Source: Geosiphon pyriformis uo1 (Eukaryota > Fungi > Glomeromycota). From it: 64,000 nucleotides of DNA. The notes under the pieces were generated by a model, which saw only the letters and a list, made by a program, of their open reading frames with translations, was not told the DNA's origin and did no database searches. Shown here in pieces: positions 3,260-55,288 of the stretch. Positions within the stretch are counted from its first letter, which is position 1. The number at the start of each line of letters is the position of its first letter. A program made the position numbers and the translations under genes. Where the stretch lies: assembly GCA_016748015.1 (NCBI GenBank), contig JAAOMT010000768.1:30079-94078 (forward strand), in the 5' to 3' direction.

Positions 3260-3759
3260 CAATTCACAGTTCCAGTAAACATAGCTCTTAATGAACAAAG
3301 TGAATCTTACCAGATTCTATGGCTTCCACAACCAATTACTATTTCACCCTTTGGAGAACATCTGGAAATCTACACCTGCCCAAAGCCAACAACCACACAA
3401 TAAATTTTTGAGTCCAATGAGCAAATCTGCTTGAAACATAATATCTTGATCCCAAACATTTATATTCCAGAAGAAACAAAAAAAGTTCGAGTTACTTTTT
3501 ACAATCCCAACAATTATCTCATAGTTTTATTAAATAACGTAAAAATTGGAGTCATTCACAATAACATCTTTCAACAAGAGTTACCCCAGACAGTTCTCAA
3601 TTTCTCGGAGATTATTGAACATTCACTATCAAAAAACAACCCAAACTCCAGCTCTGAAAACTACCATGTTGTTATGGAAAAACTATCTCGAATCAACATG
3701 GGACAACTTGAACCACAACAACAGAGCCAGCTCAAAGAGCTAATTGTAGAATTTGCCGA

Positions 3760-5100: not shown

Positions 5101-5149
5101 AATACAAAACCAACACCCATTTGAATTGACAGTAATAAAACAACAAACA

Positions 5150-6535: not shown

Positions 6536-6656
6536 ATTAAATTTATTATTACAGTTATCTCCTTATAATTTAAAAACAATCTCACAAAAACAAAACAAAA
6601 ATAACATAAAAACCCATACACCAAAAATAATTTTCTTTTATTTCAAATCTCTTATA

Positions 6657-30457: not shown

Positions 30458-31137
30458 ATAGACTTAGATAATTACTTTGTCTTAATAAAATTTTTGAGTA
30501 AAAGACAATATCCATCAGATTACACTTGACAGCAAAGAAAACATTTGCACAAACAATTAAATTTCTATTTGATTTGCCAAAACCAATTTTACAAAAGAAA
30601 TAAAAAAGATTCTAATTGTTTTTAGAGAATTATTAGATTTGAAGAAAAAAAAATTGTGATCTATAACATGCATACTGATTTATTAACTGGACACTTGGAA
30701 AAACAAAAACAATTCAAAAAACTTTAGCTCATTATTATTGGCTTACATTAGGAAAAGACATTGTTAAATACATAAAAATTTGTAATATTTGTTAAAGAAA
30801 AGACAAACCCAATCACAAAGAAGATATCCATTCAATTTTTGTTAGTCAACCATTTAACAGAATTGGTATAAATGTTATTAGACTTTTAATTATAATTCCT
30901 AATGGCAACAGATATATTATCACAGCTACTAACTATTTTACAAAGTAGATAGAAGCAAGAACCACTCCTAACCAAACAGCAGTTTTAATAGCCAATTTTA
31001 TTTATGAAGATATTATTTGTCATCATAGCTGTCCCAAAAAACTTTTATTTGATAAAAGAAGAGCTTTTCTCAATATATTAATTAAAAAACTTTGTAGAAA
31101 AATAAGAATACATTATAAACTTTCCTCCTTTTACCAC
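30458..31137 (+). pseudogene. Integrase of D, 5' part
   Basis: MHTD..TGHL and TNYFTK*IEA motifs; ends at SSFYH at the insertion site of E. Confidence 0.85.
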
Positions 31138-32040
31138 TGTTATCAATAATTATTTGGGGTCTCAAGTCAAATAACAAATCCATAACTTGGTGCTTGGTTG
31201 GTATTCTGGTGTTGATATTTGAAGGTTTGTTTGGTCTGAAGGTTTTGTTGTGGAGTTTTTTGTATAATAGACAGAAAGTTGATTAATAGTTTTATCTATA
31301 GCTTCCCAAAACTGCAGTTTTGTTAAATTTTTTTCTCAGCATGGTGGCCGATAATCCTCCTGATAAGCTATCCTCAAATCTATGAGTGTTTTACTCTTGT
31401 TTTACAGGTCTTTTACCAGTCACTATAACATCTGTATCTCAGTGCTTAATTTTTAATCGATTTAATAAATCCAAAGAAATAACAAAAGAAATAAAAAAAA
31501 TAAAAGAAGATAAAGAAGTTAACAAAAGCAATTGCAAGTTAGTATTCTGTCAATAGCTGTGATCAAGAGCTATTGTTCTAGTGTGGTTAAGTATCAATTA
31601 CTATCAACATGAAGTGTTGATAGTGAAGAGTGAATTAAGATAGTAAATATTTATTTATTGATATTTGTAAATAAAAGGTTGCTTAAATCAAATCTAAACT
31701 GAGAGATTTCTAATGGAAGGATTCTTTTTTTTCTACTTCTAACACTATTACTATATACACATAATTGATATTTTATGAGATTGCTTACATTCCCGAGTGA
31801 TGTGCTATGATTTCTTGAGCAATGCTCACATTGCTGAACAATTTGCCCTAATTTTCTAACATTGCTTCACATTGCTGAGCAATGTGCCATGTTTTTCTGA
31901 CATTGTTTCACATTGCTGAGCAATATGCCATGATTTTTGTCATTGCTCTACATTGCTGAGCAATGTGTTCATGTACTACATACTATTCTCTTATTAGTCT
32001 ACTATTTTTTTATATCTGTTTTCTTTTTCTATAAGTAATA
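31138..32040 (-). repeat. 3' LTR of E
   Basis: TGTTATC...AGTAATA; the reverse-complement PPT TTATCTCCTTC follows at 32041. Confidence 0.9.
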
Positions 32041-32055
32041 TTATCTCCTTCTTTT

Positions 32056-32691
32056 TTAATATTAAGCTCTGTCAAAATCTTTGTTTTGAATTAATTCTAA
32101 TACTTTTTTTTCAAGTATTGTTTGTTTGACTCTGTTTCTCATGTCTTCTACTTGTATATTGTTCATTTTTCCCTATTGGTTAATGGTTATGGTTTTCATG
32201 TTAGAGTGTAACAGTATTTTTAGGTTGTTCTGAAATATATTGTATAGTCAGTACATTGCTTTAACATGTAGTGTTAAATTCGTCTTCTTTCTGATAATTT
32301 CTTCAATTTGTTGTATTATGTCTTGGTTGAATATTCTCTTGAATTTGTCAGTATACAACTCCTGAATATTCAACTTTTGATCTAACTGGTAGTAGCAATA
32401 TGATATTAGAAGTCATTCTGTTCATTGCTTTCAATTTTCTTTTGTAAGCTCTTCTGTTGGTGCCATAACAGGTATTTTCCCAAAAGTGTTCTTTACTTTT
32501 CCTATTAAATTATCTGTCCAGTTTTTATTGTTCTTTGGTGGTTACTGGTATGGTCTATTTTTTGTTTTTCTTTGGATGTTTTGATAGCAAATTATTTGGT
32601 TGTTAATAACAATTTCCATGTCTAACTATTGTTCACTTAGGGCCTAGAATAATTGTTAAGCTATAGTGTGAATATGATTTGGTATTTCCAT
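32056..32691 (-). pseudogene. ORF3 of E
   Basis: MEIPNHIHTIA... start; homologous to ORF3 of F and of family 1; several stop codons. Confidence 0.7.
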
Positions 32692-32749
32692 TTTTCTTGG
32701 TTGCTTTTGTCACATATACTGTGTTTTTATATACTCTTTTGGTTGTTCA

Positions 32750-35700
32750 ATTTGACATGTTTGGTTTAATAACTATGATTGATTCCAGATCTTGTGGAAT
32801 CTCATCTGGTTGAACTAGTATTCTTTGTACTTCCAGTTGGGGAATGTTATTGGTAGATAATAATGCTATCTGGTGATATGGTTTTAGTCAATCACCATAT
32901 GCTGCTTTGGCTAAGATTTTGTTATCCCATCTTAATTTATAAGTTCTATTTCCAAGAATTTCTTCTATGTAAAATGGTTTATCCCATTTGGGGTTAAATT
33001 TTCTATTTCAATTTTTTTCCACTTTGGTATAATGTAATAGTATCTTGTCTTCAATCTTAAATTCAACTGATTTATTTGGTAGTTGGTTATCGTGTTGTTT
33101 TTTTTGCTTTTTTTGTGACTTTTGAATGTTATCAGCTGCTTTTTGTCATTTGTTTTCTAGTGTTTCCATTAAGTCATATGTTCTTCTCAACAATGTTTCT
33201 TGGAAATTATCTTCTGTTATTGGTTCAGTTGGATATGTATTGACCTCTATCTCAACTGGTAATGTTGCTGTTCTACCGTATACCAGTTCAAATAGTGTTG
33301 CTTGTATGGTGTCTTGTTTCATTGTCCAATAAGCAAATAATACTGATGGTATAAACAAATCTCATTCATCTTGGTTTTCTTGACTGATCTTGGCAATTGC
33401 TTCACACAATGTTTTGTTAAATCTTTCGACTAACCCATTTATTTGTGGATGGTATGGTGATGATAATGGTCTTTTAATTCCAAATCTTTGACTTAATTTT
33501 GTCAATATTCTATTCACAAAGTGAGTTCCTTGATCTGATAATAGTTTTTTTGGACATCTATGTTGACAAATCAACTCTTGATAAATAAATTCGGCAACAG
33601 ATTCTGTATCTGCTCTTTAAATTGCTTTTGTTTCTGGCCATTTAGTAAGATAGTCCATGGCTACTGCAATATATCTGTTGCTTCTGTTAGTAATTGTTAA
33701 TGGTCCGACTAGATCAATTTCAATTTGATTGAATGGTTGTCCCACTTTGATTGGTCTCAATGGTTCATTGGGTTTTGTTCCACCTCTTCTCTGACAAGCA
33801 TCACAATTTTGAACATATTGAATAATGTCTGGATACATTAATGGCCAATAGTATCTTTTTTTGGTTCTTTCTATGGTTGCTTCTTTATGAAAATATCTGG
33901 CTGTTGGATCTGAGTGCATGTTGAATAATATTGTCTCTTTTTTTGGTTCTGTAATTACTCTGATTGGTTGATCTGAATTTTTTCTGTTCTTCCAATAAAG
34001 TATATTTTGATAATTAATAAAATATTTTGATTGTTGTTTTATGTTTTTTTGTTCTTTTTGAGATAATTTTTTCTTGAACAATTGTGTATTTATATAATAT
34101 TAAAGTTGTTAGTATTTTTGTATATTCATCTTTTGTTGTATTTTTTGGGTTGAAATGTTTCTAGATTTGTCTTATTTGCAACAAACCATCAGCATTTCCG
34201 TTTTCTTTTCCTTTTTTGTAATATACTGTATAATTAAATGGTGAAAGTTCTATTTTCCATCTGACATGGCAATCATCTCCAAATTTTTGCTTCTGGATTG
34301 AAATCAATCCTTTGTGGTTAGTGTATACATCAAACTTCTGACTCAAGTATTCTTTCTATTTGATGACAGCTCAATAGATAGCTAAGTGTTCCAGTGCTGA
34401 AGTTCTATAGTTCTTTTCTGCTGGACTTAAGTTTCTACTGGCGTAAGCTACTGGATGTTCTCTTTCATCGGGTTTTTTCTGTGAAAGTACTGCTTCCAAT
34501 ACTTGGTCTGATGCATCAGTGGTGATTATGAATGGTTTGCTGTGATCTGGATACATCAATACTAAAGCTTGGATAAACTTTCTTCTTAATGTGTCAAATG
34601 CTTCTTGTTGAGCTTTAGTCTATTCATATTTCACATTCTTGGTTTGTAAATGATGAAGTAGTTGAACCAGTTTTGAAAAGTTTTTGATAAAATGGTGATA
34701 GTAGCCTGCAAAACCCAAAAATGCTCTTAGTTCTGTTAAGTTGGTTGGTACTGGAAAGTTTTTAACTACTTCAATCTTGTCTGAATCTGTTTTGATTCTG
34801 TTTTTGCTTACTACATGTCCCAAAAAATTGAGTTCAGTTTTTCCAAAGAAACATTTAGTTGCGTTTAGTTTCAATCTGGCTCTTCTTAGTCTTTCAAACA
34901 CTTGTTGGAGATGATGCAAATGATCATCAAATGTTTTTGAGAACATATTGGTGTCATTCAAGTATATGACTACTGATTTCCATAATAATCTAGTATAGAC
35001 AATTTCCATGAGCCATTGGAATGTTGCTAGAGCATTTATCAAGCCAAATGGCATGATTTCAAACTCAAAATTTTCCTCTCTTATGGTAAACACTGTTTTC
35101 TCTTTGTCGGCTGAATCCATGGCTACTTGTCAGTAACCACTATCTAGATCTAATGTTGAAAACCATTTATTTTTTCCAAAAGTGTCAAATAGTTCTTGGA
35201 TCTTTGGAGTTGGATAACTATTACCTTTAGTTATTTCATTCAGTTTTTGATAATTTACACAAAAGCAGATTTTCCCATTTTTCTTTTGGACTAGTACTAC
35301 TGGTAATGACCATAAATTCATTAATGGCTGAATTAGCCCATTGTCAAGCATTTGGTTAATTTCTTGATGAATGATCTTATGACTGGCTGGTGGTACTCTG
35401 TATGCTCTTTGTTTAATTGGCATTGCATCTCCCGTCTTAATCTGATGCTGGATGATGTTGGTATGGCCGAATTCATTTTCACTAGCAAAGATGTCATTGA
35501 AATTGTTAAGTAACATCCTTAGTTGCATCTGTTGGAATGGGTCTAGATTCCTCATGTTTATCTGTTCCAATTGTTCTGGTTGGAGCAGATAACATTCACT
35601 TTGTTTGTAGATAGTTTGTGATGTAATGTCCACATATCTGCAAAGCTGTGAAAAATCTGGAATGTGGTTTGGTGGTTGATTCTCAACTTTGGTAGTTAAA

Positions 35701-35998
35701 TATCTGATGATGATTTCTTTTAGTATTTCAATTACATTTCCTGTTGTGTTGTATATGGAAATTTTGATGTTTTTGGGGCTTTTGGCTGATATGTAGAAAT
35801 TAATGAGTTCAATCTTTTCTGATTCACAAATGGTGGTTTCTGCTTCAAACAACTGAGCTTAATTCTTTACTTCTCTTTTTATGGCTAACATATATTGGTC
35901 ATATGATAGAATGGAAATCAATTGACAGGTTGAGATAATTTCTTCTTTGTCAACAATTTCTTTCTCTGTTATATTGATTGTATATCTATTCTACCCAT
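32750..35998 (-). pseudogene. pol: Integrase, RNase H, RT and linker of E, truncated at the dUTPase C-terminus by F's LTR
   Basis: ORFs 33146-35852 carry CDACQ, DYLTKWPE, SDQGTHF, MPFGL, YLND and YASRNL. Confidence 0.92.
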
Positions 35999-36764
35999 TG
36001 TTACAGATGATTATTTGGGGTTTCAAGTCAAATAACAAATCTGTAACTTGGTGCTTGGTTGGTACTCTGGTGTTAATATCTGAAGGTTTGATTGTGGAGT
36101 CTTTTGTATAATGAACAGAGAGTTAAGTGATGGTTTTATCTGTAGCTTTCTAAAACTGCAGTTTTGTCAAATTTTTTTCTCAACATGATGACCAGTAATT
36201 TTCCTAGTAAGCTATCCTCAAATCTATGAGTGTTTTATCCTTGTTTCATGGGTCTTTTACCAGTTCTTATGATATCTATATCTCAATGCTTAATTCTTAA
36301 TCAATTTAGTAAAACCCAAAAAATAACAAAAAGAAATAAAAGAAAATAAAAAAATAAATAAAAGCAATTGCAAGTTAGTATCTTGTTAATAGCCATAATC
36401 AAAAGCTATTGTTCCAGTGTGGTTAAGTATCAATTACTATTAACATGAAGTGCTGATAGTGGAGAATGAATTGAGATAATAAATAATTATTTATTGATAT
36501 TTGTGATGTGGAAGGTTTCTAACTGATGGATTCTGTTTTTTCTACTTCTAATATTACTGCTATATATACATAATTTGGGTTCTATGAGATTGCTCACATT
36601 TTTGAGCAATGTGCCATGATTTCTGACATTGCTTCACATTGCTAAGCAATGTGCTATGATTTTTGACATTGCTCCACATTGTTGAGCAATGTGCTTACAT
36701 ACTAACTACTACTCGCTTATTGGTCTACTATTTTTATATATCTGTTTTCTTTTTATGAGTAACA
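35999..36764 (-). repeat. 3' LTR of F (internal third LTR)
   Basis: TGTTACAGA...GAGTAACA, then reverse-complement PPT TTATCTCCTCC. Shorter variant of E's LTR. Confidence 0.9.
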
Positions 36765-36781
36765 TTATCTCCTCCTTTTTT

Positions 36782-37413
36782 TTATTGAGCTCCATCAAAA
36801 TCTTCATTTTGAATTAGTTCTAATACTTCTTTTTTAAGTATTGTTTGTTCGACTCTGTTTCTTACATCTTCTATTGTGTATTGTTTATTTTTCCCCATTG
36901 GTTAATAGTTATGGTTTCCATGTTAGAGTGTAACAGTATTTCTGGATAGTTTTGAAATATGTTGTGCAGTTAGTAAATTGCTCTTACATATAGTGTTGAG
37001 TTCGTCTTCTTTCCAATAAATTTTTCAATTTGCTGTATTATGTTTTGGTTAAATATTTTCTTGGATTTGTCAATATACAACTCCTGAATATTCAACTTCC
37101 GACTTAACTGGTAGTAGCAGTATAATATTGGAAGTTATTCTGTTCATTGTTTTTAATTTTTTTTTGTAAGCTCTTCTGTTGGTGCCATAACAGGTATTTT
37201 CCCAAAAGTGTTCTTTACTTTTTCTATTAAATTATCTGTCCAGTTTTTATCGTTCTTTGGTGGTCACTGGTATGGTCTATTCTTTGTTTTTCTTTAGGTG
37301 TTTTGATAGCAAATTATTTGGTTGTTAATAACAATTTCCATGTCTAACTATTGTTCACTTAGGGCTTAGAATAATTGTTAAGCTATGATGTGAATATGAT
37401 CTGGTATTTCTAT
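36782..37413 (-). pseudogene. ORF3 of F
   Basis: Reads ILYCYYQLSRKL...NSTLYVRAIY*LHNIFQ...ITINQWGK; homologous to family-1 ORF3. Confidence 0.7.
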
Positions 37414-37469
37414 TTTATCTTGGTTGCTTTTGTCACATATACTGTGTTTTTATATACTCTTTTGGTTGT

Positions 37470-38835
37470 TCAATTTGATGTGTTTGGTTCAATAACTATG
37501 ATTGGTTCCAGATCTTGTGGAATCTTATCTGGTTGAACTAGTATTCTTTGTACTTCTAGTTGTAGAATGTTATTGGTAGATAATAATGTTATCTGGTGAT
37601 ATGGTTTCAGTTGATTACCATGTGCTGCTCTGGCTAAGATTTTGTTGTCCTATCTTAGTTTATAAAAATTTCTTCTATGTGAAATAGTCTATTCTATTTG
37701 GGGTCAAATTTTCCACTCTATTGTTTTTCTACTTTGGTATGATGTAATAGCACTTTGTTTTCAATCTTGAATTCAACTGGTTTATTTGGTAGTTGGTTAT
37801 CATGTCATTTTTTTTGCTTTTCTTGTGACTTTTGTATGTTGTCAACTGCTTTTTGTCATCTGTTTTCTAGTGTTTCTATTAAGTCATATGTTTTTCTCAA
37901 CAATGTTTCTTGCAAATTATCTTCTGTTATTGGTTCAGTTGGATATGTATTGACTTCTATCTTAACTGGTAATATTGCTGTTCTACCATATATTAATTCA
38001 AATAGTGTTGCTTGTGTGGTATCTTGTTTTATTGTCTAATAAGCAAATAATACTGATGATATGAACAAATCCCATTTGTTTTGGTTTTCTTGATTTTGGC
38101 AATTGCTTTACACAATGTTTTATTGAATTTTTCAACTAGTCCATTGGTTTGTGGATAATATGGTGATGATAATGGTCTTTTGATTCCAAATCTCTGACTT
38201 AGTTCTGCCAGTGTTCTGTTCACAAAGTAAGTTCCTTAATCTGATAATAGTTTTTTTGGACATTTATGTTGACAAATCAAATCTTGATGAATGAATTCGG
38301 CAATGGATTCTGCATCTGCTCTTTGAATGGCTTTTGCTTCTGGCTATTTGATGAGATAGTCCATGGCTACTGCAATATATCTGTTGTCTCTGCTGGTGAT
38401 TGTTAATGGTCTAACTAAGTCAATTCCAATGTGATCGAATGATTGTCTCACTTTAATTGGTCTTAATAGTTCACTTGGTCTTGCTTCTCTTCTTCTCTAA
38501 CAAGCATCACAATTTTGCATGTATTGGATGATGTCTGGATATATTGATGACCAATAGTATCTTTTTCTGGTTTTTTCTATGGTTGCTTCTTTGTGAAAAT
38601 GTCCTGCTGTTGAATTTGAGTGCATATTGAATAATATTGTCTCTTTCTCTGGTTCTGTGATTACTCTGATTGGTTGATCTGGATTTTTCTTGTTTTTTCG
38701 GTAAAGTATATTTTGATGGTTGATAAAATATTTAGATTGTTGTTTTATGTTTCTTTGTTTTTTTTGAGATAATTTCTCCTTGAACAATTGAGTATTTATA
38801 TAATGTTGTAGTTGTTGATATTTTTGTATATTCAT
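37470..38835 (-). pseudogene. Integrase of F, beginning at its own ATG
   Basis: MNIQKYQQLQHYI...MHSNSTAGHFH...CDAC; YPQTNGLVE. Confidence 0.9.
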
Positions 38836-38865
38836 CTTTTGTTATATTTTTGGGTTGAAATGTTT

Positions 38866-41800
38866 TTAGATTTGTTTTATTCGTGACAATCCGTTGGCAT
38901 TTCCATTATTTTTTCCTTTTTTATAATGTACTGTATAATTAAATGATGAAAGTTCTATTTTCCATCTGGTGTGACAATTATCTGCAAATTCTTGTTTCTG
39001 AATTGAAGTCAGTTCCTTGTGATTTGTGTATATTTCAAACTTTTGGCTCAAATATTCTCTCTATTTCATGACTGCCCAATAGATTGCTAAGTGTTCCAGT
39101 GCTGGTGTTTCATAGTTTATTTTGGCTGGACTTAAGCTTCTACTGATGTAAGTGACTGAATGTTCTCTTCCATCTGGTCCTTTCTGCGATAGTATTGCTC
39201 CCAATGCTTGGCCTAATGTATTGGTGGTGATGATAAATAATTTGCTGTGATCTGGATACATTAATACTAAAGTTTGCATTAGCTTTTGTTTCAGTATGTT
39301 GAATGCTTCTTGTTAAGTTTCTGTCCATTCATACTTGACATTCTTAGTTTGTAAATGATGGAGTGGCTGAGCCAATTTAGAAAAGTCTTTGATAAAGTGA
39401 CGATAATAGTCTGTGAATTCCAAAAATGCTCTTAGTTCTGTTAAATTGGTTGGTACTGGAAAGTTCTTTATTATTGCAATCTTATCTGGATCTGTTTTGA
39501 TACCATCTTTGCTTATAACATGTCCCAAGAACTTGAGTTCAGTTTTTCCAAAGAAATACTTGGTTGTATTTAGTTTCAATCCAGCTCTTCTTAGTCTTTC
39601 AAACACTTGCTGGAGATGATGCAGATGATCATCAAATGTTTTTGAGAACACATTGGTGTTATCCAAATATATAACTACTGATTTCTATAGTAATCCAGTA
39701 TAGACAATTTCCATAAGCCATTGAAATGTTGCTGGAGTGTTCATCAAGCCAAATAGCATGATTTCAAACTCAAAATTTTCTTCTTTTGTGGTAAATGCTG
39801 TTTTTTCTTTGTCAGCTGGATCCATGGCTACTTGCTAGTAACCATTATTTAGATCTAGTATCGAGAACTATTTGTTTCCTCCAAAAGTGTCAAATAGTTT
39901 TTGGGATTTTGGAGTTGGATAACTATCACCTTTGGTCACTCCATTCAGTTTCCAATAATCCACACAGAAATGGATCTTTCCATTTTTTTTCTGTACTAGT
40001 ATTACTAGTAATGACCATGGGCTCATTAATGGTTGAATTAACCCATTGTCAAGCATTCAATTGATCTTTTGACAAATGATCTTATGGCTAGCTGGTAGTA
40101 TTCTATATGCTCTTTGTTTAATTGACATTGTATCTCCAGTTTTAATCTAATGCTGGATGATGTTAGTACAGCCAAATTCATTTTTACTTGCAAAAATGTC
40201 ATTGAAATTGCTGAGTAACATTTTTAGTTGCATTTGTTGAAATGGGTCTAGATTCTCCATGTTTATTTGTTCCAATTGTTCTGGTTGGAGCAGATAACAT
40301 TTACTTTGTCTGTAAATGGTTTGTAATGTGATGTCCACATATTTGCAAAGCTGTAGAAAGTTTAAAACATGGTTTGGTAATTGATCCTCAACTTAAGTGG
40401 TTAAGTATTCAATGATAGTTTCTTTTGGTCTCAATGACATTTCCAGTTGTGTTGTAGATGAGAATTTTGATATTTTTGGGGCTTTTGGCTGATATGTAGA
40501 GATTAGTAAGTCCAATCTCTCTTGATTTACAAATGCTGGTTTCTGCTTCAAACAATTGAGCTTGATTCTTTACTTCTCTTTTTATGGCTAGCCTATACTG
40601 GTCATATGGTGGAATAAAAATTGATTGACAAGTTGAGATAATTTCTCCTTTGTCAACAATTTCTTCCTCCACCATATTAACTGATATATCTATTCTACCC
40701 ATTGATCCAAATCTCTGTATTCCTCTAGCTGTAATCCCTAATTCTTCTCTGTTTTTCACTGACACTAACTGCGCTATTTTCACCAGAAGTAGGAATATTG
40801 TCTGTGCTATCTTTTTGTTTGGATCTATGATATATGCTTTTTCTGAGTCATTTTGTAGCATAGCAATGATATTTCCTATGTATCCTGTGTCAATTATTCC
40901 TCCTTTGATGTTGATTCTCTTTTTTGCTAGGCTATTTCTAGATGCTAACTGGATTATTGTTGTTGCTGAAATTTCTAGTGCTATTTTCAGATCAATGCAA
41001 GTGTGCAAATATGGTTCCAATTTGAGAGAATTTTTCCTTGAATATCTTAGATCAAACCCTGCATTAGTATTATGCACACGTTCTGGCATAATACCTTCAT
41101 CATTATCACTAAACTATTTAAGTTCTTGTTTCTTAGTGAGGTCTGGAAGTGCAATATATTGTTTGGAGTTTGAATTGAAGTTTGAATCTGAGTTAAAATC
41201 ATTGTTATTTTGAACAGAGTTAGAATCATTATTTTTATCGTCATCGTTGTTGGAGTTTGAATTGGGATTGGAAATCAATTTCGATTTGGATACACAACTG
41301 CTTATTGGTTCGTCTTCTTCTGGGATCATGTAGATCATGTGTGGTGGTAGATTGTAAATGAGATTACACTTATTACAATATTGAAAGTCACATGAGATTA
41401 AGCAATATTGATATAATCAAGTGTTCAACTGCTCTAAATGCTGCTCTTGTTCTTCCCTAGTAAGTGCCAAATGCTGGTAATGTTTATGAAATTCTTCTGG
41501 GTTGTCCTCAATGTTGCCAAAGACATTAAAAGTTTGGACATATTCGGGTTTAGGAAGAGATAAAGAGTTGTTTTTGATCTCTAGTAATTCACTGGTTGTT
41601 ACGCCTTCTGCTTTTACATATGCCATTCTCCATAGTTCATCTTTATCATGAGGATATTTTTTCAATTGTCACAATACTCATTTCCAGGCATCATCGATTG
41701 GTGTTCCTTTGCTTACCCAATCATTTATCAGTATGGTGTACTGGCATGTCTTATCACATGTTCCTCCACACCCAGGAATGTTATTCCATATTTCTTTGTC

Positions 41801-44800
41801 AGGTAGGATAGTTTCACATGTGAGACATGGTTGGTTATCCCACTTTCCTTGTTATTTCAGTTGTTCAAAGTGCTCTATAATACATAAGCAGCAGTAGAAT
41901 CTTGTGGCTGTGGAGTATTTTTCGTTATCACCACAGCATGCACTCATTGACAACAATTTCTTGCTGCAATTGATGCATTCCAATTTTGGTCGATGATAAT
42001 TGGATGGTGGTGATAAAGTGTAAGCATATAAACTATAAGTGCTACTAGTGAGAATGGTTTTGTTTTCTTTTTCCTTTCTTTTATCAGTTTCTTTTCACAT
42101 CCAGTTTGCTGGTTTGTCTTGGTCATTATTAGTTTTCTAGTTTTGGTTAGTATTCCAAATAAGTTCTTTGTTTTCCTTTCTTTTTTCCTTGTTGTCCTAA
42201 AAAAGTATTGGTGATAGCTCATTGTGGTCTTTGTTAACCCAAAAAACTTGGTATGCTTCTCAGATAGGTTTCTCTTTTTCTTCTTTAAATTCGATAAGTG
42301 GAGCTGATAACATGGTGATGAGTTTGAAATGGCCACACATGGCTGGTACATGTGTGTGTTGTCTGTTCTGGCTAAGCTGGAGCTCTTGAGTGTTCCAGTC
42401 AAGTATTGTATTGATTTTAGACAGCCAGTTATTACTTACTAGTGCTTGGTATTGAGTGGCTTCTATAATTAATACCTTGATTGGTACAATGATGCCATTG
42501 ATTTCTATAAGCAAGTTATTTATTTCACCAATTGAAATCTTGGTGGTTCTATTAGCTGTAATTATCCTTGCACTGACAGTTCAATTAACTTGATGACCTA
42601 ATTGGTTCATGAACTGTCTTGTAATAATGCTGCCAGCTGATCTATTATCTAGAATCAGTTTGATGAACTGACCATCAATTTTGGCATCTGTGTACATTGC
42701 TGTGATAGGTTTTTCTTTGAGTATAGTTCCACTAAACAAAGGGGTTTCTGTCAGTTTCTCAATTTCGAAAAAAAATATAGCTGCTAGAGACTCATTTTTT
42801 ATAACAGTGGCTGGCAGAATATTGGTAAGTGATTGTTTCTGTTTGGGTTCCCAAGTGTTGGGTGAGATGTCTTCTGGGGTAACCAGAAGACTTAAATAGT
42901 TCTGGGAACTTGGGTTTTAAGTATACCCGGTTCCTGAACTCTGCTGTCATGATCCTGACAGCTGGTTGGATGAACTGGAGATCAGTTGGTGAACAACCAT
43001 CACCAATCTTCAGTTTTGGGTGACTCTTGATCTAGAATTTTCTGATGTTATTTGAGCTGGGTTTGATGATGGTGTTTGAACTGTAAGTGTCTGATAAATT
43101 ATTTGTGGCTGCAGTGGTTAATATATTATTGGTAGCTGTGGTTAATAAACTGGAGGTTGATATATGGGTGGTTGATATATTGGCTGTTACATCATTGGTA
43201 GGTAAATTGGTTGATATAGTGCATGGTTGGGTTGGTAATTCAGAGTTGAGAACTGGCAATCAGGGTTTCAATATTGATTTTCTGATCATTGGTTGTCTAT
43301 CCTTACCCTAGAGTCAATTTTTAAATGTTTTTGTTTATTACAATAGTGGCAAACACGTGTCTTTGGCTGTTACTGTTGATTGGTTGATAAAGATGGCCAT
43401 GACTGATTCTGGAAATAATTTATGTTTTTTTGAATATTGCATTATTGTGGAGATTAATAGATTGCGTGATTGTCAGCTAAGTATCTTTCTAATTTCTGAT
43501 TAAGGAAATCACTGAATTGTTTCAATTTGGAATCCAATTCAGATGATCTATTTATTACTAGATTAATGGCTTGGGCATGATTAACTTTGAGTTTAGCTGT
43601 TTCAAAATCTCTGGCATTGGTAATTGCAGCTTGAAGGTCTGCTGGATGCATTGGATGTATGCATTGGAGGATGCTACTGTGCAGACCTCTAATAAATTGG
43701 TTTAGAATTTGTGGCGCTGTAAAATAGTCAGCCTGAATTGCTTGTATTTGGCGCAGATTCCTATGAAAGTGTTCTAGATAAGTAGTGACTGCTTCATTTT
43801 CTCCTTGTTTGATAGTGGTGAAAGTGTTTGCTAGCTGATTAATACTATTATTATTGCTGAAATATTGTAGAAAGGCAAGCTTGAATGCAGCGAAATCCTG
43901 GAGTTTATTAGCCAAGCTTTAATACCATGAATTAGTGATATCCTGGAGAAAATAAGGGATGGCTTACATGGCTTTGGTGTCATCTCATCCATTGGCTGCG
44001 ATGGCTTTTTCCACATTATTTAGCCATACTTGGACATCATTCTTTTTGCTTGTGAATTTTTTGAGTTTGGCAATAGGAGCATATGCCATTGGTGCTACAA
44101 TTTGTTGTTGTGGTGGTTGTTGAAGTTGTTGTTGTGGCAGTGGAAACAGCTGTTATGGTTGTTGTTGCTGTTCTGTGATTAGTGGATCTGGTAATGAATT
44201 GATCATGATTTCTAAAAGTAAGAGTTGATTAATTAAGTCAGAGTTTTGATTATTCTGATTTTGCTGCGTTTGAAAACTCAGAGTTTCAATTTCTGGGTTT
44301 TCAATAATTGGGTTTTGGTAAGTGAATTCTTGTTCTTCAGATTCTTTTTTTTTTCTTCTTGTTCTTCTTCTGAATTTGTTACTTCCCAAGAACTCGTGAT
44401 TCCGAAATCTGGTTGAGGTAGCAGAGATTGAAGTCCTGATGGCATTGAAGATTATGATTTAAATCCTTTGAAATACATTCTGTATGGTTCTAGAAGATCT
44501 TCTTTCCTTTGTTTACTCTGAAATGGGAATTGTCCAAAAGTTGATGTCGCATGTGATATAAACACATCTATTAATGTAATGTTAATAGTGCTTCCGAGTT
44601 TGTAATGGTATGATAGGTTTGTTGGTGATTCAACTCTGGTTTTCTTCCAAGTGGGTGGTTGTATTTGTTTTGGTGTCACTGCTGGTGTTTGCAATCTTCC
44701 TTTGTCTTTGTCTGTGTAGGTAATAGGGAATTGTTGTTGTGTATATCTTTCAATGGTTTGGTTGATTTCCCTGATAATTGGTGTAAAACTGTAGTTTCTT

Positions 44801-45030
44801 GGTAAGCTGGTGTATTGAAATAATTCTGTATAGAAATTTTCTCTTGCTGATTCAATGTTAACTGTTCCTTTCAAGTAATCTGTAATTTTTTCATTGACGT
44901 AAAAGTTGAAATCAGATTCTGCTGGATAATGGTTGTTGGTTAATCCCAATTGTTGACTGTACTGTTAAAATAAGGATTTGGCAAATCCTAAATGGTTTGT
45001 CTCTATAATTTCTGATTCTGCCACTTTTGG
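38866..45030 (-). pseudogene. gag-protease-Cys-rich insert-dUTPase-RT-RNase H of F/E
   Basis: Gag ORFs 43454-44949; protease near 42330-42700; dUTPase ORF 40409-41089 (AGFDL, GGIIDTGYIG, KIAQ, RGIQRFGSMG); RT/RH ORFs; stop after GLSRIKQI. Confidence 0.9.
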
Positions 45031-45729
45031 ATGATTGTTGTTGGTGCTGGTTCTCTGTAGGATTATATTTCACAGGAAGCACTAAATATTACCGATGATT
45101 ATTTGAGATCTCAAGTCAAATAACAAATTTGTAACTTGGTGCTTGGTTGGTATTCTAGTGTTGATATCTGAAGGTTTGTTTCATTTAAAGGTTTTGTTGT
45201 GGAGTTTTTTGTATAATGGACAGAAAGTTGATTAATGGTTTTATCCATAGCTTCCCAAAACTGCAGTTTCGTCAAATTTCTTTCTCATTATAGTGGCCAG
45301 TAATCCTCTTGGTAAGCTATCCTTAAATCTATAAGTGTTCTACCTTTGTTTCACAGATCTTTTTACCAGTCACTATGATGTCTGTATCTTAGCACTTAAT
45401 CTTTAATCAATTTAGTAAAGAAATAACAAAAGAAATAAAAAAAAATAAAAGAAAATAAAGAAGTAAACAAAAGCAATTGCAAGTTAATATTTTGTCAATA
45501 GCCATGATCAAGAATTATTGTTTCAGTATGGTTAAGTATTAATTACTATCAACATAAAGTGTTGATAGTGGAGAGTAGATTGAGATAGTGAATATTTATT
45601 TATTGATATTTGTGAATAGAAGGTTGTTTAGATCAAATCTAAATTGAGAGGTCTTTAATGAAAGGATTCTTCTTTTTCTACTTCTAATGCTACCACTATA
45701 TATACATAATTGATATTCTACGAGATTGC

Positions 45730-46698
45730 TGTTACCAGACAAAATTAGAGATATTGTTTAGCATGAAATTACTCTTATAAATTTTGTCATTAATTAGCAT
45801 ATATTATTGTTTTAAATTATTACTTATTATATTAGCAAAATGTCCAAAATTATCATTTAATTAATAATCTAATTTGTATATAACACAAATGTAATCTAAG
45901 TGCAATGATCAATCATGCAATACCCCGAAATATATAACATTCAAAAGTTTGCCAAAATTTGTAGAAATTTGCCGAAATAATTGATAGTTCACTGAAATAT
46001 CTAATAGTTTGCAGAAATAACTTGTAGTTCGTCGAAATGTATTTTTAGTTTAGCAAAATTGTAGAAAAGAGCAAAGTTCAAGTTCATAAAATAGTGTTAT
46101 AACAAGTTGTATAAAAGAAGAGCTTCTCTCTTCGAGAAAATATATCTTACTTTAGATTTATTACTTAGAACTATTTTTATACACACAAAAAGAAATAAAT
46201 ATCAAATAATTCAAATAACCAAATTCTTTAATTATTGCACTTGGAAAATCCCCAAAACCCAACTAATGTTTTGAAATTGATTAGCTATCAATTTCATTAA
46301 ACTGTTAGTGACTTCAGGCCTGGATAGAAAATGTTTCCCTTGACAGAATTTTATTTCTTTTACATTTCTTTTATTTTCTTATTATAATCATTAGGGTAGC
46401 CTACAGACAAGATTTCTGTAGAAGAGTTGACTTTCACAGCAAAGTAATTACACATTTTTAGTGAGCTTCCAGACGAGCAATTTCTGGGAAAGAGTTGACA
46501 TTTACTACAACATAACTACACAAAGCAATTGGCACAAAATTGGCCATTCTACTTATAAGTCCAGCAGTTCAAATTATAGGAGATAATTTGAAGATAAAAT
46601 TCAGTTATCAGAGGTTCAAACACTTTCCATAATCATGAATTAACAGTATTACAACAAACATACAAGAGCTAAGAAGAGACCAAAAACCTCTGGTAATA
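45730..46698 (+). repeat. 5' LTR of C
   Basis: TGTTACCAGA...TCTGGTAATA, followed by TT and PBS TGGTGCTCTTCCAC. Confidence 0.93.
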
Positions 46699-49600
46699 TT
46701 TGGTGCTCTTCCACAAAAATAACACAGTGACAATGACTTCAAAAGTGGTGATTCAAACAGATTCAAGAACTCTAGAGTATTATCAGTCAATCTACACCCA
46801 CTGTAAGCAAAGATTTAACATCCCAGACAGAATTGAAACATTCAAGAAAACACTTTACCAGTATATTGAAAATTGTATCAACAATTATCTTCTTGGAGAC
46901 TACAATATTTCAGAAGTTAAACACAACTTATATAAAAGCTTAGTATATTACTCTCGTCTAAACACTCAAGATTTTAACAGTTAAACACTTGAAACATATT
47001 TCCAAGAATTCAACTTCAATATCATTCAGTATTGTAAAGAGAATTACCCAGTAGAACAGAAATTTTCTCTTAATTTTGAATCAGAAACAGAAAAAGGAAA
47101 AGAAAAAAAGAAACAAAAACTCAAAACTACTCCCAATACACTTAAAACCACTGTCAAACATTTACAAACTCCAGAACCAGGAACCAGCTTTAAATTACCA
47201 CTCTTAATCACACTATTTCCAGCTTTACCTGCTCAATTACAAACATCAAGCTCATAACTTATTCGGTTTTCAAGAATAGAAGATTTTCAGTCACCCAAAA
47301 GCCTTATTCAACAAGAGGAACCAATATTAACTAGCACAAACCTTATTGACTATTTAGCAAAAAATCAAAGTGAAGAGACCAAATCAGAACAAGAAACAGA
47401 AAACTCAGAAAATGAAGAAGAAATGGTCTTTACATATATCACAAAAATTCCTGAGTTCACAGGAGAAAACAATAAAACCAGTTCTCAAGAATGGCTTGAC
47501 AAAGTCTCAAAAGCAGAAGATGCAAATGGTTAGAACACTGCCAGAATGTTAAAAGCAATTCCATACTTCTTATAAGGAACAGCCAGTGAATGGTTTGAAA
47601 ACTTGGAAGCCCCACCAGAAGACTGAGAAACATTCAAAACTGCTTTTTTAGAACAGTTCACTGACAATAACACTTTCATTACCCTTTGAAATCAGTTCCG
47701 AAATATCAAGCAAGAACCAAGTGAATCAGTTATGACCTACCTTAGAAAATTCAACAAACTGCTTAGAAGAATTTGCCAATTGGAAACAAATGAATACTAC
47801 TCTAATGCACAAATCTTGAATCAATTCATTGCTGGACTAAAAGACAAACTTATCAAAAAAGTTCACCCACATGTACCAGAAGATTTAGCCACTGCTATTC
47901 AACAAGCAAAAAACTATAAAATGGTCATGAAAGAAGCCAATTGTACCAAACTTGTTAACCTGGCTATTGGAAAAACCAGCTTAGCAGCTGAAGAAAAGAT
48001 TGATTAATTAACCAAGAAAGTTGAAAACTACTTTACCAACCAACAGCAACAACAGCAGCTGCAGCAATCATAACAACCACAAAGATACCAACCCCCACAA
48101 TGACACAATCAAAACAACTTTGGACCACCATCCAACAACCAAATCCAAAATTGCCATTACTGTGGAATCCCTGGCCACTGGAAAAAAGATTGCAGAAAGC
48201 TACAATGAGACCAACAAAATAGGAGTAATCAATGTTATCTTCCACTACAGCAATCTTATTATTAACTACCATCACCAGTTTACTATCCACCAAGATCTCA
48301 ATACCAAAATAACTATTATTAGTTCACTCCACAGCCAATCCAACAGCAATACCAACAACTACCCACACAACATTATTAAGTACCTGCTCGAAGATTAATT
48401 ACACAAAATCAATTTACACCACAAAACTGATACCGAGTAAACAACAATAGAATTAGTTTGAACAACCAATTGGTTCCCTGAAATTCTGCTCAACCAAGAC
48501 CCAACCACTATTACACTCAACTCAATTATTTAACAATACCAGAAGAACAAGATTTTTACCATACTGCACTTTCAGAAGGTAGAGCTGCAGCACAACAACA
48601 AAATTCTTCTCATAACCACACCACTATTCCATCAGCCAGAATTGCTGAAAATGCCAATCTCTCTGATATCTTTCTTTTCGAGTTTGAAATCATCATTCCA
48701 GTTAAAGTTCTTGTAATAGATGCTTCTCAGTATCAAGCCCTTGTCAGAAATGACTGGCTTCAAAAAGCCAATGCAAAATTAGACTGGGAAACCCAAGAAC
48801 TACAAATCTCTTACCAAAGACAACATGCCTGAGTACTTGCCACTTGTAGTACATTCAACAAATGCTCCAAAAAAGCCCCAGCTTTTGAATTTGAATCAGA
48901 AGAAGAAAAACCAATAATCAAAACATTCATGGCTCTTGGGTCAACATCCAATTGGGCCAATGAAACTGAACAAAAACATTTTACTCCACACTCCAAACCT
49001 GAAACCTCTGGATGGAATACCCCTTACTCAAAGACTGAGCCAAGGAAACAATGCCCCTACATTCTTCTTAAATGTAAGAACTGCCACAAGAAACTATTGT
49101 CAATGGGAGCTTGTATTTCACCTGAGGAAGAATATGAAAGTCACACCTGCTACTATTGCAAGACCTGCCATCAAGAACAATGGAGCCACTTGATCAAAAG
49201 AAGTGAAAAATGAGATGGAACACTCTGTCTTACTTGTGGAAAGCAGCTTCCCGATGAATGTGACTGGATTGATATTGCATTTAGAGGAGGAGTCTGTGAT
49301 CAAACTTGTCAATATGCTCTTTCTATTGTGGAAAAAGTAAAACATGGAATACCTTTCAATGCCACATATAACAGTACTCTCAGCAAACTCTATCACTACC
49401 CCCATAATACCAAAATGATCTACAAACTTGCCATGGTTTTAATTAATAGAGGAACCAAAGAAGATGTCTTTCAAATAAAAGAAGCTAAATATATTGAATA
49501 TACATTGAAATTAGCTGGATTCGATTATGAAGATGAAGTAAAAGTATACCACCAAATTGCAAGTCACACTTACTTAACCCAAGAAGCTCAAATTCAATGA

Positions 49601-52600
49601 TTAAAGCAAATGAACATTAAATTATGTGAGGAGTGTATAATGCCATGTGACAAACAATAGTGTTCTGAATGCTACGCTCTTAGCATTCCATTGCCCAATA
49701 AAAGCAATGAATATGAAATTGAATTCGGAGAACCTGAAGCAACAGAAAAAATTGAAACAACATCCATCTACCTCATCAAAAATCAGCCTGCTTCACAACT
49801 CAAATACTTCAACAACAATAGACAAGGAATAAAACTGGAAAAAGCACATGAAATTGATACTGGATATGATCTACAATATCTAGGAAAAGACACTTTGGTT
49901 CTTCAACCAAATTTTTTTACCAAAATCAACCTCAAAATTGTCCTCAAAATCTTACCAGGAGCAATGGTCTAAATTACTTCACAATCATTATTGGCAAGCA
50001 AAAGAATCAATGTTAGAAGAGGAATCATAAATGCTGGATATACAAAAGACATTACAATCATGTTATAAAATGAAACTGATAAACCTTTTCAGATTGAACA
50101 TGCTAAAAAAATTGCTCAAGCTATTTATTTACTTTTAATCAACATTTCGAGTTTATAATTAGTCAATCAAAAAGAACAATTGAGAAAAAGTGGAAAAGGA
50201 ACCAATGGTTTTGGTTCAACTGGATGATTCACAGTTCCAGTAAACATAGCTCTTAATGAACAAAGTAAATCTCACCAGATTCTACAACTTCCACAACCAA
50301 TTACTATTTCACCCTTTGGAAAACACCCTGAAATTTACACTTGTGAAAAGCCAACAACCACACAACAAATTTTTGAGTCCAATAAATAAATCTGCTTGGA
50401 ACATAATATCTTGATCCCAAATATTTACATCCCAGAAGGAACAAAGAAAGTTCAAGTTACTTTTTACAACCCCAATAATTACCCCATAGTTTTATTAAAT
50501 AACTTAGAAATTGGAGTTATTTACAGTAATATTTTTCAACAAGAATTATCCCAAACAGTCCCCAATTTCTCTGAAATTATTGGACATTCACTACCAAAAA
50601 TCAACCCAAACCCCAGCTCTGAAAACTACCATGTTGTCATGGAAAAACTATCTCAAATCAATATGAGACAACTTGAACCACAACAACAGAGCCAGTTCAA
50701 AGAGCTAATTGCAGAATTTGCCGATATCTTTACTGAAAACAACAATGACTTAGGAAAAACTGATTTGGTTTAATACCAAATCTATACAGGAGATGCCAAA
50801 CCAAGGTGACAGCAAGCCTACCAAGTTGCTCTAGAAAGTCACCAATTTATCTGCAAAGAAATACAATAAATGCTCAACAATAGACTTATTCAACCATCAA
50901 TGAATCCATGGATCTTACCTGTGGTTTTAGTTAAAAAGAAAAATGGAAAGATACAATTTTGTGTTAATTATCGACAACTCAACAGTGTCACCATTGGAGA
51001 TGCCTACCCCCTTCCCTGATTTGATAATATGTTGGACGTCCTTGGAAAATCCAAATACTTTTTGACATTAGATTTAGAGAGTAAATACTGACAAGTTGCC
51101 ATGGATCCCGAAGATCACCCCAAAACAGCATTCACCACTCAAGGAGGAAATTATGAGTTCAATGTAATGCCTTTCAAATTATGCAATGCACCAGCAACAT
51201 TCCAAAGACTCATAGATGTTGTTTACAAAAGTCTCCTTTGGAAATCAGTAGTTGTCTATCTTAATGATACTAATGTTTATTCATCATTTTTTGAATTATA
51301 CTTAAAACACCTATGAAAAGTTTTTTAATAATTACAGAAAGCAGAATTGAAACTGAACATTGAAAATGCTACTTCAGAAAAATGAGTTTGGTCTTTTTTG
51401 GTCACATTATTAGCAAAGATAGAATTAAACCAGACCCCGGAAAAATCAGCACTATCAAAAACTTCAAGACTCCACAAAATACCACAGAATTAAGAGGATT
51501 TATTGGATTAGCATCCTATTATCAAAAATTTATCAAAGGATTCTAAAAAATTACAAAATCTCTCAACTAGCTCACTACTAAAAACGTTGAATACAAATGG
51601 ATGGAAAAACACCAAAAAGCTTTTGAAATTCTCAAGAAAAAGTTAACAACAGCTCCAATTCTTGCCTATTCAGACTTCAGTAACCAATTTTGATTAGCTA
51701 CAGACACTTTTTACACTGCCTTTGGTGCTATCTTATCACAATTGGATGACAATAGAAATGAGTGAGTAATTGCTTATGCTAGCAGAACATTAAAACCAGC
51801 TAAAAAAAACTACTCTGCCATAGAACTAGAAACAGCAGCCGTAATTTGGGCCTTATACCACTTCAATCTTTATCTTAAGCCTAAAAAATTCGACATTATC
51901 ACTGATAATATTGGACTCAAATGGCTTCAAAACAAAAACACTTAGCTGAATGCCAAACAAATTTGATGGACAGGATTTTTAGCTAACTACCAATACATTG
52001 TGCATTACAAACCAGGAAAACTCCACACCAATGTTGATTGTTTCTCAAAAATGAGGCAAGATTAGAACATAAAACCAACACCTATTTGAATTAACAACAA
52101 GACAACAAACAATAAACCCCGAAAACTACAACAATCTTAAACAATATTTGGAGACATTAACAATCCCAACAAATTGGTCTGCAGATGAAAAACACCAATT
52201 ACAACAACAAGCCAAACAATACCTCTTACACAACAACATGATTTATTATCGAAACTTCAGAAACCCAGACAATTCACTCAGATTAATACAAGAACATGAA
52301 AAAAAAACCATTTTATATAACATGTATTCAGACTTTTCATTAGCACATCTAGGAAAAGACAGTACCACTCAGAGAACACTAAAATATTACTTTTGGCCTC
52401 GAATAAAAAAAACATTTATGAATATGTTAAGTCTTGTAATAATTGTCAAAGAAAAGGAGGAACTCGCCCTACAGAACTTTTAAACCCAATCAAAGTTGGA
52501 CAGCCTTTTGACTGAGTTGGTATTGATTTAGTCAAACCACTACCTATCACAAACCAAGGAAACCATTATATTGCAGTAGCTGTAAACTATCTCACCAAAT

Positions 52601-53618
52601 GGCCCAAAGCCAGAGCCATTCAACAAGCAGATGCAAAATCAGTAGCAAATTTCATCTATAAAGACATCATTTGTAGACATGAATGCCCAATAGAACTTTT
52701 ATCTGATCAAGGAACACATTTTGTGAACAATTTAATCCAGAAAATTTGTGAATGATTTAATGTCAAGAGACCATTATCTTCGCCCTACTATCCACAAACA
52801 AATGAACTTGTAGAACATTTCAACAGAACATTGTGTAAATTATTAGCCAAAGTCTCAACCGATTTTGAGCAAGAATGGGATTTCTTTATTCCGTCAGTAT
52901 TACTAGCATATAAAACACTAAAACATAACATCACAAAAAACATACCATTTGACTTAACCTATGGAAAGACAGCAATGTTACCAATTAATTTTACTGTGAA
53001 ACCATACCCAGTGCAGCCAATTAATGAAGAAAACTTTCAGGAAACACTTCGACGAAGAGCCTACAATCTTCTTAGCACATTGGAAAGAAAATGACAAATA
53101 GCAGCCACTTATATCGAACACTCCCAAGCTCAACAAAAAGAATGGCATGACAACAAATTGCCACCAGTCACCAATGAATTTAAAATTGGAAACAAAGTTC
53201 TCTTACACAAAACTAAAGCTGAAAAACAATGGAGTGAGAAATTTGAAAATAAATAGGATGAACCATTCTTTATTTATGAAGTTCTAGGCAATAAATTATA
53301 CAAGCTAAGACTTGATGACAAAATCTTAGCAAAAGTTGCACATAGAGATCATTTGAAACACTATAATTCCAGAAACAATCCTGAACCATTAATTTCACAA
53401 ATTGATACACATTTTCCTTTAATTAATCCCGAAGATATTCCCCGAAATTTAGAACCAATAGTTGTTATTGAACAATCTCCCAACTTGAACACTTAACTTA
53501 AATTTATTATTATAGTTATTTCCTTATAATTTAGAAACAATCTCACAAAAACAAAGCAAAAATAACATTAAAACCCATACACCAAAAATAATTTTCTTTT
53601 ATTTTCAAATCTCTTATA

Positions 53619-54173
53619 ATGACTATTCCTCAAAACATTCAACAATTATCCCAAAAACTAATGTTAGCTTTAAAAACAATATCCGAATTATTCATTATTG
53701 TTACTAAAAACCACATTAATTATACCCAAACAGAAGTAGTTACAAATTTAGCCCCAAATTCACGAAAATATCACCCATATAAGAAGAACACAAGAAATTA
53801 TTCTGGAATTCACTTGCCAAAACTTTTAAAGCTTGCTTTAAGAGAAAACTTAATGCTTATTTTTATTAGTATTCCACCAAATGTTACTATTCAACAAAAA
53901 CTTCAACTGTGTCTTAATGAAGAAAACTACGACTATACTTTAATATATAGATATTTTTACATTGGAAAAACACTTCACAAACAAAAATGGGAGCTTACAG
54001 CAGCAAACCTTACAAAAAAAGCTATTCGGAAGCAACTCCACAATGAATTCAAGACAACAGCTGGATCTAAAAACAGTCATTATAAACTAAGAGCTGCTCT
54101 TAGACTTTATGACCTATTCTACACCTGTGAAAACGTCCTACAAAACCCAATTTTACAGCCTTTGAAAATTTAA
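53619..54173 (+). pseudogene. ORF3 of C (homology continues past the stop to ~54337)
   Basis: 184-aa open frame near-identical to 6657-7211. Confidence 0.75.
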
Positions 54174-54305
54174 TACATTGGAAAGCTCACAGAACTGAAA
54201 TTTTAACAATTTCAGACCAAATTTCTTCAATAATTTTGGATTATTATCTGGAAATTACAGACAGTACTTGGACTTCAATGAAGCTCAGTCTTGAGGAGAA
54301 AGTTA

Positions 54306-55288
54306 TATTACCAGACGAAATTAGAGATATTGTTTAGCATAAAATTACTCTTATAAATCTTATTATTAATTAACATATATTATCATTTCAAATTATCACT
54401 TATTACATTAGCAAAATGTCCGAAATTATTATTTAATTAATAACTCAATTTGTACATAACACAAATGTAACCTAAGTGCAATGATCAATCATGTAATACC
54501 CCAAAATATATAACATTCAAAAGTTTGCCAAAATTTGTAAAAATTTGTAGAAATAATTGATAGTTCACCAAAATATCTAATAGTTTGCAGAAATAACTTA
54601 TAGTTTGCTGAAATGTATTTTTAGTTCAGCGAAATTGTAGAAAAAAGCAAAGTTCAAGTTCATGGAATAGTGTTATAACAAGTTGTATAAAAGAAAAGCT
54701 TCTCTCTTCGAGAAAATATATTTTACTTTAGATTTATTACTTAGAATCATTTCTACACACACAAAAAGAAATAAATATCAAATAATTCAAAAAACCAAAT
54801 TCTTTAATTATTGCACTTGAAAAATCCTTAAAACCCAACTAATATTTTGAAATTGATTAGCTACCAATTTCAGTAAACTGTTAGTGACTCCAGGCTTGGA
54901 TAGAAAACGTTTCCCTTAACAGAATTCTATTTTTTTTACATTTCTTTTATTTTCTTTCTTTTATTTTCTTATTATAATCATTAGGGTAGCCTATAGACGA
55001 GATTCTTATAGAAGAGTTGACTTTCATAGCAAAGTAACTACACATTTTTAGTGAACTTCCAGACAAGCAATTTCTGGGAAAGAGTTGACATTTACTACAA
55101 CATAACTACATGAAGCAACTGGCACAAAATTGGCCATTCTATTTATAAGCCCAGCAGTTCAAATTATAGGAGATAATTTGAAGATAAAATTCAGTTATCA
55201 GAGGTTCAAACACTTTCCATAGTCATGAATTAACAGCATTACAACAAACATACAAGAGCTAAGAAGAGACCAAAAACCTCCGGTAACA
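54306..55288 (+). repeat. 3' LTR of C
   Basis: TATTACCAGA...TCCGGTAACA, preceded by PPT GAGGAGAAAGTTA. Confidence 0.93.

Follow-up and report, generated by a model that had tools for sequence, protein, structure and literature searches.

In textbook long terminal repeat (LTR) elements, integrase (IN) is encoded within Pol, so that its amount is fixed and its entry into the particle is ensured. Here, we describe an element, designated C, at positions 45730-55288 of a 64,000-nucleotide stretch of Geosiphon pyriformis uo1 DNA (contig JAAOMT010000768.1; hereafter the window), in which IN follows a stop codon as a reading frame of its own. The ICTV profile puts IN inside pol (PMC7879559), as do passages of two further papers (PMC3248453 and PMC6317226). 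A dUTPase between protease (PR) and reverse transcriptase (RT) is already known from published fungal and rotifer Gypsy elements: passages of one paper describe it for PosPlaTy3-5 and elements of Phanerochaete and Tuber and argue for independent captures (PMC2864245), and passages of another describe the bdelloid elements Juno, Vesta, and TelKA, in which pol reads PR-dUTPase-RT-RNase H (RH)-IN and the third open reading frame (ORF3) encodes GDSL, DEDDy, or transmembrane (TM) proteins (PMC5408684). LTR sequence makes up 41.2% of the G. pyriformis genome, according to a passage of PMC11952901.

Element C is a real but decayed Ty3/Gypsy-type LTR element, with its modules in the order gag-PR-Cys-rich insert-dUTPase-RT-RH, stop, IN, ORF3. 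Its RH-IN split is not a product of decay: the two are genuine separate genes, and IN has a real start. In the window, a stop after RH with IN downstream was found in two of two copies of family A, which includes C's sister copy A1, and in two of two copies of family B, where IN begins at an intact ATG 34-35 nt past the stop (38832-38834 and 34127-34129). The IN start in C reads ATA. When 315 contigs of one DNA run, which may be the assembly's source and thus samples other copies of the family, not an independent genome, were aligned to 52020-52150, the RH stop TAG (52063-65) showed no variant at or above 8% and no indel, and A>G at 52114 accounted for 56,106 of 60,245 depth (93%), indicating that the ATA of C is ATG in most copies. 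The original prediction had claimed a stop after RH in three families. This holds for families A and B, whereas family D, represented by one decayed copy with several stops, has an in-frame junction, and therefore does not by itself distinguish a genuine stop from decay, although its sequence ATA-GAC-TTA-GAT corresponds to M-D-L-D, the family start.

The split extends far beyond the window. Among the best 80 of 573 confirmed metagenome loci, which were gathered with a stand-alone-IN profile favouring split members, 47 reach RH upstream, and IN is a separate ORF in all 47, so that the layout does not collapse to an ordinary gag-pol. An ATG was found at the profile start in 45 of these 47 loci (the pick for L055 is doubtful), and of 71 starts, 65 have a purine at -3. 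All three phases of IN relative to RH were found (12/19/16), and the spacers measured -35 to +2 nt in 11 loci, 24-99 nt in 24, and >99 nt in 12, the longest being 1026 nt. No AG acceptor is fixed in position upstream of the IN start (the last AG lies 2 to 111 nt away), which rules out conserved splicing as a general route to IN.

A homologue search with IN returned 1004 proteins of 264-842 aa, of which the best 120 are nearly all integrases of 390-450 aa that start with M-D/E/N; their names are from Geosiphon and, for several, from Rhizophagus. A search for long forms returned 653 proteins; in the three best gene models from arbuscular mycorrhizal fungi, the motif at the end of RH is missing, together with some or all of the IN start, which is what a false intron spanning the stop would produce. 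Only four distant loci were found when viral contigs were scanned for IN.

Trees were calculated for RT-RH (74 rows) and IN (72 rows) from every locus and window row of sufficient coverage, the best of the long proteins, and one third of the remainder, all of them database matches and none of them Ginger, GyDB, or REXdb references. In the RT-RH tree, 27 of the 29 split rows group together (support 83 in the SH-like approximate likelihood-ratio test), the split label changes twice as compared to 23.1 times when shuffled, and a single clade for the split rows is not rejected (p = 0.935, approximately unbiased test). In the IN tree, 27 of the 28 split rows and the fused P0394 form one set (support 96). 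The sub-groups of the IN tree are those of the RT tree. RT and IN therefore look co-inherited, and a Ginger-like transposase that was captured again and again is correspondingly less likely. These results support a coherent lineage with a stand-alone IN and a non-env ORF3, far wider than the Geosiphon genome. The coherent multi-module clade of the original prediction is thus retained for the split IN and the non-env ORF3, whereas the dUTPase and the Cys-rich insert are local, and ORF3 and the primer-binding site (PBS) are not clade-wide. Of this layout, the split IN recurs in 47 of 47 loci, but the dUTPase and the Cys-rich insert in none of the 22 relatives that span PR to RT.

With roughly even confidence, we hold that ribosomes which have reached the Pol stop restart on the same RNA and make IN from the AUG of its own. 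The Gag-PR-RT-RH frame ends after RH, leaving IN and ORF3 as separate genes, and tRNA-primed reverse transcription would proceed in Gag particles, as in Ty3. The spacer to be crossed in such a restart would be short and unstructured, measuring 46 nt in family A and 34-35 nt in family B, and in some relatives restart may be aided by a stop/start overlap or by structured RNA right before the AUG; different branches may use different expression routes. The free IN would then join the particle or the cDNA non-covalently, the dUTPase would likely keep uracil out of the cDNA, and the Cys-rich insert is predicted to bind zinc. Restart is favoured by the 11 overlapping or abutting junctions, by short spacers in 24 loci, and by the absence of a splice acceptor at a fixed position; LINE-1 and SART1 are precedents for it. 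C is best explained as a dead copy of a Ty3/Gypsy-type lineage of arbuscular-mycorrhizal-type fungi.

Several points weigh against this account. Unless a dedicated element assists, restart is normally inefficient once an ORF of about 1,800 codons has been translated, and no such element was found upstream of the stop, where no search for 18S complementarity was made. The 12 of 47 spacers that exceed 99 nt (two of which, in L069 and L070, are inflated by mutations in a Pol tail) fit restart poorly, as does L079, which carries an extra ORF between RH and IN. The structured motif described below lies downstream of the Pol stop, unlike termination upstream ribosome-binding sites (TURBS), which lie upstream of the stop and are complementary to 18S. 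In addition to the selection of loci in favour of split members, P0394 and P0399 are apparently truly fused RH-IN relatives, the former nesting among the split integrases.

We consider it doubtful, though still a serious alternative, that IN (and ORF3) is translated from a subgenomic RNA, either transcribed from an internal promoter or generated at a structured RNA through cleavage or nuclease-resistant processing. Such an RNA would accommodate the spacers of several hundred nt and the intervening ORF, and a candidate structure is present: a stem-bulge-loop of about 40 nt, in single copy and on the sense strand, lies just 5' of the IN ATG in 28 of 80 loci, 22 of which served to build its model. 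Between its end and the ATG lie -1 to 31 nt, with 2-3 nt in 16 of the 28 loci. It is built of two helices (4 bp and 6 bp), a purine-rich bulge that is conserved, and a loop of 8 nt. Bulge and loop have invariant bases, and a U-G pair that never varies indicates the sense strand. Two-sided changes occur at 7 of its 10 pairs, and 97% of positions are paired as compared to 26-57% in slid controls, the covariation counts being inflated by the relatedness of the sequences. A second, short motif before the ATG (TTGA-TTAAC type) was found in 10 of 41 other loci, from which it was itself taken, as compared to 2.6% of controls, and also in C. However, the 11 junctions that overlap or abut the Pol stop leave no space for non-coding signals, the stem-bulge-loop is absent from the window, in which the spacers are unstructured, and from 52 of 80 loci, and its single copies fold no better than shuffles (z -0.6 to +0.4). 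No Rfam match was found in 15 loci (E up to 1) or in the window, and the pattern of the stem-bulge-loop had no matches in viral contigs.

Less probable still is that the structured RNA acts on the genomic RNA, either as an internal ribosome entry site (IRES) or as a binding site that recruits free IN for packaging. Its single copy, its sense orientation, its fixed place beside the AUG, and its invariant bulge and loop bases would suit both roles, and an IRES in an LTR element has been described, albeit on antisense RNA, in the abstract of PMC10974842. About 40 nt would nevertheless be very small for an IRES, and the spacers of the window families are unstructured. A programmed frameshift or readthrough that fuses RH and IN into one Pol is very improbable. 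Families A and B do have TAG-A, and their +1 frame continues through the stop without interruption (copies A1 and B2); relatives have a readthrough-type TGA-CTA stop elsewhere, but the occurrence of all three phases, the freely varying spacers, the closure of the IN frame, in most loci, within a few codons on the upstream side of the ATG, and the conservation of the ATG and its -3 purine argue against recoding. Mutational decay of an ordinary gag-pol, which the many C>T and G>A stops of the window copies and the in-frame junction of family D might suggest, is largely refuted by the intact metagenome loci and by the invariant stop and majority ATG in the family reads.

The original prediction had also claimed a 3' accessory, non-env ORF in three families. 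Homologous ORF3s are present in families A and B, whereas none was demonstrated for D. BLAST joins the downstream ORFs from 27 loci into a single cluster, and that of L003 groups with the ORF3s of window families A and B; a profile comparison matches these two groups to each other (probability 85%, E 5.9e-6). A profile search returned 592 representatives (E <=0.001), the best 150 of which have a median length of 142 aa, and none of these 150 contains a TM segment (Kyte-Doolittle, 19-residue window, >=1.9). For the relative from L025 (148 aa), the structure model is all-helical with a predicted local distance difference test score (pLDDT) of 96.2, so that the non-env character of ORF3 is borne out. 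Comparisons against the PDB by Foldseek, VIA wide (best Z 4.4, none >=5), and BFVD gave no fold match, which proves neither novelty nor difference; the ESM Atlas gave no match, and no Pfam family was found among the scanned members, save for the integrase core in the fused model P0259 and weak matches in two members of greater length. ORF3 is a conserved, non-membrane, predicted all-helical protein family, new to this study. From its charge and lack of membrane segments, one might guess at a soluble accessory protein that binds nucleic acid or the particle.

In A1, L003, and several other loci, ORF3 crosses the pre-PPT motif and the polypurine tract (PPT), sometimes entering the LTR. The claim that the three families share the pre-PPT motif was correct, GGAGCT being present in A, B, and D; its pattern, which was derived from the loci in which it was counted, occurs in 10 of the 26 loci whose PPT was located, as compared to 0.3% of control windows. 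In eight loci, the PPT lies 18-178 nt from the IN stop, indicating that these loci lack ORF3, and one sub-lineage is without it. A NUDIX hydrolase occupies the place of ORF3 in one locus (L031:1945-2886).

The features of C and its surroundings are listed in Table 1.

Table 1. Positions of the modules of element C, of related copies in the window, and of representative stem-bulge-loops in metagenome loci (TSD, target-site duplication)
Feature	Position	Strand	Remarks
Left TSD	45726..45729		TTGC; right copy TCAC at 55289-55292; compared with the empty site at 31770-31800
5' LTR	45730..46698	+	TGTTAC...GTAATA
PBS	46701..46718	+	Begins TGGTGCTC; 3' end nominal
gag	46733..48687	+	N-terminal extension of ~230 aa, capsid, CCHC knuckle (about 48152-48193), Q/P-rich linker; many stops
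Protease remnant	48688..48850	+	N-terminal part with DSG motif deleted in C; intact in A1 at about 1500-1840
Cys-rich insert	49018..49735	+	~235 aa; CxxC clusters at both ends, helical middle
dUTPase, trimeric type	49823..50225	+	PF00692, E 5e-18 on A1
RT and RH	50702..52065	+	Frameshift near 51375 in C; ends with TAG at 52063-52065
RH-IN spacer	52066..52111	+	46 nt, A/C-rich, unstructured; sets IN in the +1 frame
Stand-alone IN	52112..53496	+	H2C2, DDE core, SH3-like; frameshift near 52380 in C
ORF3	53619..54337	+	Non-env, basic, predicted all-helical; read in the frame of A1 and L003, extends across the PPT into the 3' LTR; frameshifted near 54210 in C
Pre-PPT motif and PPT	54280..54302	+	Motif of GGAGCTCA type; PPT itself at 54293-54302
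3' LTR	54306..55288	+	TATTAC...GTAACA
Sister copy A1 (family A)	1..8326	+	Left end cut by the window start; best-kept reading frames; RH-IN junction as in C
Further family A copy	8326-14453		
Family B element hosting C	31134..45729	-	Resumes at 55293-55548; module order as in C
Stem-bulge-loop, examples	L020:1217-1257, L027:5192-5232, L037:1129-1169		25 more loci

C is the only window copy in which both LTRs are present; they show 72 differences across 968 columns, 69 of which are transitions. C also lacks ~270 bp with the protease DSG motif at about 48688 and contains 32 stops in the gag-RT frame, in addition to frameshifts. With the protease active site lost, it can be called the most complete copy in outline only. 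The predicted ends TGTTAC..GTAACA stand as a consensus, the inner ends of C being mutated to GTAATA and TATTAC. The 4-bp TSDs predicted for three families were confirmed in C, B (CCAC), and D (ATAT), and the two differing copies in C are both derivable from a single CpG-centred 4-mer through deamination. The same derivation applies to all four visible target sites (45726-45729/55289-55292, 31130-31133, 25400-25403, and 8327-8330). The shared PBS was recovered in C but varies among its relatives.

Upstream of the junction, gag, zinc knuckle, PR, Cys-rich insert, dUTPase, and the start of RT share one frame in A1, in which gag has Pfam matches to Retrotrans_gag and Ty3_capsid, whereas its N-terminal extension matches no Pfam family. 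As predicted, two of the three families carry a dUTPase: it is found with the Cys-rich insert in A and B and not in D. The five motifs of such a dUTPase are recognisable. The Cys clusters of the insert are kept between A and B; the insert has no Pfam or ESM Atlas match, and its structure model is unusable (pLDDT 39.8). Among its best 120 relatives, 119 bear the name Geosiphon and the remaining one is the window's own protein. Both modules were seen solely in Geosiphon-named proteins, and they are likely late, Geosiphon-specific additions that do not define the clade. The region between dUTPase and RT (50226-50700, ~150 aa) has no Pfam match, as scanned on A1, and may, by its resemblance, be a degenerate dUTPase-like beta domain. 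The nearest solved structures are those of Ty3, both for RT-RH (E 9e-99) and for IN (E 3e-48).

Among the relatives, a single in-frame TGA lies between PR and RT in 8 of 22 loci (L011, L012, L015, L058, L062, L073, L079, and L080), several of which also lack ORF3; CTA follows in 7 of the 8, a leaky readthrough context. In other loci, mostly in the branch with the structured RNA, Pol extends 220-340 aa beyond RH with no Pfam family (L024:2518-3324, L027:4357-5163, L039:3497-4438, L056:2420-3271, L074:3084-4112, L044, L054, and L077). L079 has ORFs without name upstream of gag and between RH and IN (1687-4093, 9471-9992).

The window is AT-rich and CpG-depleted (CG observed/expected 0.21), and most of it consists of nested LTR elements. 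Three families are nested, C lying in family B and family B in family D; the family B element has a tandem LTR-internal-LTR-partial internal-LTR layout with a single outer TSD. A host-type gene that is richer in GC and encodes a protein kinase domain (PF00069, E 3e-10) lies on the minus strand between the element clusters (15978-17475), and an assembly gap of 425 N (62319-62743) falls within a very AT-rich stretch.

Taken together, these features tentatively suggest a Ty3/Gypsy lineage in Glomeromycotina that is old, abundant, and unnamed and has three cistrons, namely a Gag-Pol without IN, a free IN, and a lineage-specific accessory protein of a new helical fold, in which the 40-nt structure at the AUG would be one of several solutions adopted by different branches. 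The 40-nt RNA of such a tricistronic element could serve internal initiation, RNA processing, or recruitment of IN, as a means to express and deliver an integrase that is not packaged within Pol. A successful lineage that breaks the Pol-integrase rule makes two questions testable: by what means a fungus translates an ORF that lies behind a very long one, and how a free IN locates its cDNA. It also opens a new, compact RNA structure to assay, along with a new protein family. Many genes annotated as DDE integrase/transposase or as hypothetical in mycorrhizal fungi likely belong to these elements, and some fused gene models in the annotations would bypass the stop via a false intron.

In its LTRs, PBS, PPT, capsid and nucleocapsid, PR-RT-RH-IN order, and Ty3-type RT, the element resembles the Metaviridae (Ty3/Gypsy), from which it differs in that IN lies outside pol and the downstream gene is not env. 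Unlike chromoviruses, it has no chromodomain at the IN C-terminus, no chromo Pfam being found in the window integrases or in the best 120 listed stand-alone ones, and unlike Errantivirus and other env-bearing elements, its ORF3 is without TM segments. REM1 of Chlamydomonas, an algal LTR element, is said to carry IN in a separate antisense ORF, whereas here IN lies in sense, directly after RH. The place of the dUTPase is common to the PosPlaTy3-5 type, for which the passages at hand of PMC2864245 mention no split IN, Cys-rich insert, or ORF3 of this kind. As described in passages of PMC5408684, Juno, Vesta, and TelKA share the dUTPase between PR and RT and a non-env ORF3, which is variable there; the present ORF3 differs in having neither a Pfam match nor a TM segment, and the present IN is split. 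With Ginger1, as portrayed in passages of PMC2836005, the element shares a Gypsy-like IN as a gene of its own, TGTNR ends, and a 4-bp CG-containing TSD; Ginger1 has terminal inverted repeats and OTU/Ulp1 tails and no RT or LTRs, whereas LTRs and RT-RH are present here. No description of a split-integrase Gypsy clade was found in a search of open-access literature, to the exclusion of Repbase, GyDB, and subscription journals. Judged from its sequence, the element would work like a Ty3/Gypsy element, yet it departs from the canonical definition, in which pol includes IN; the ORF3 family and the covarying RNA stem-bulge-loop before the IN AUG are new here.

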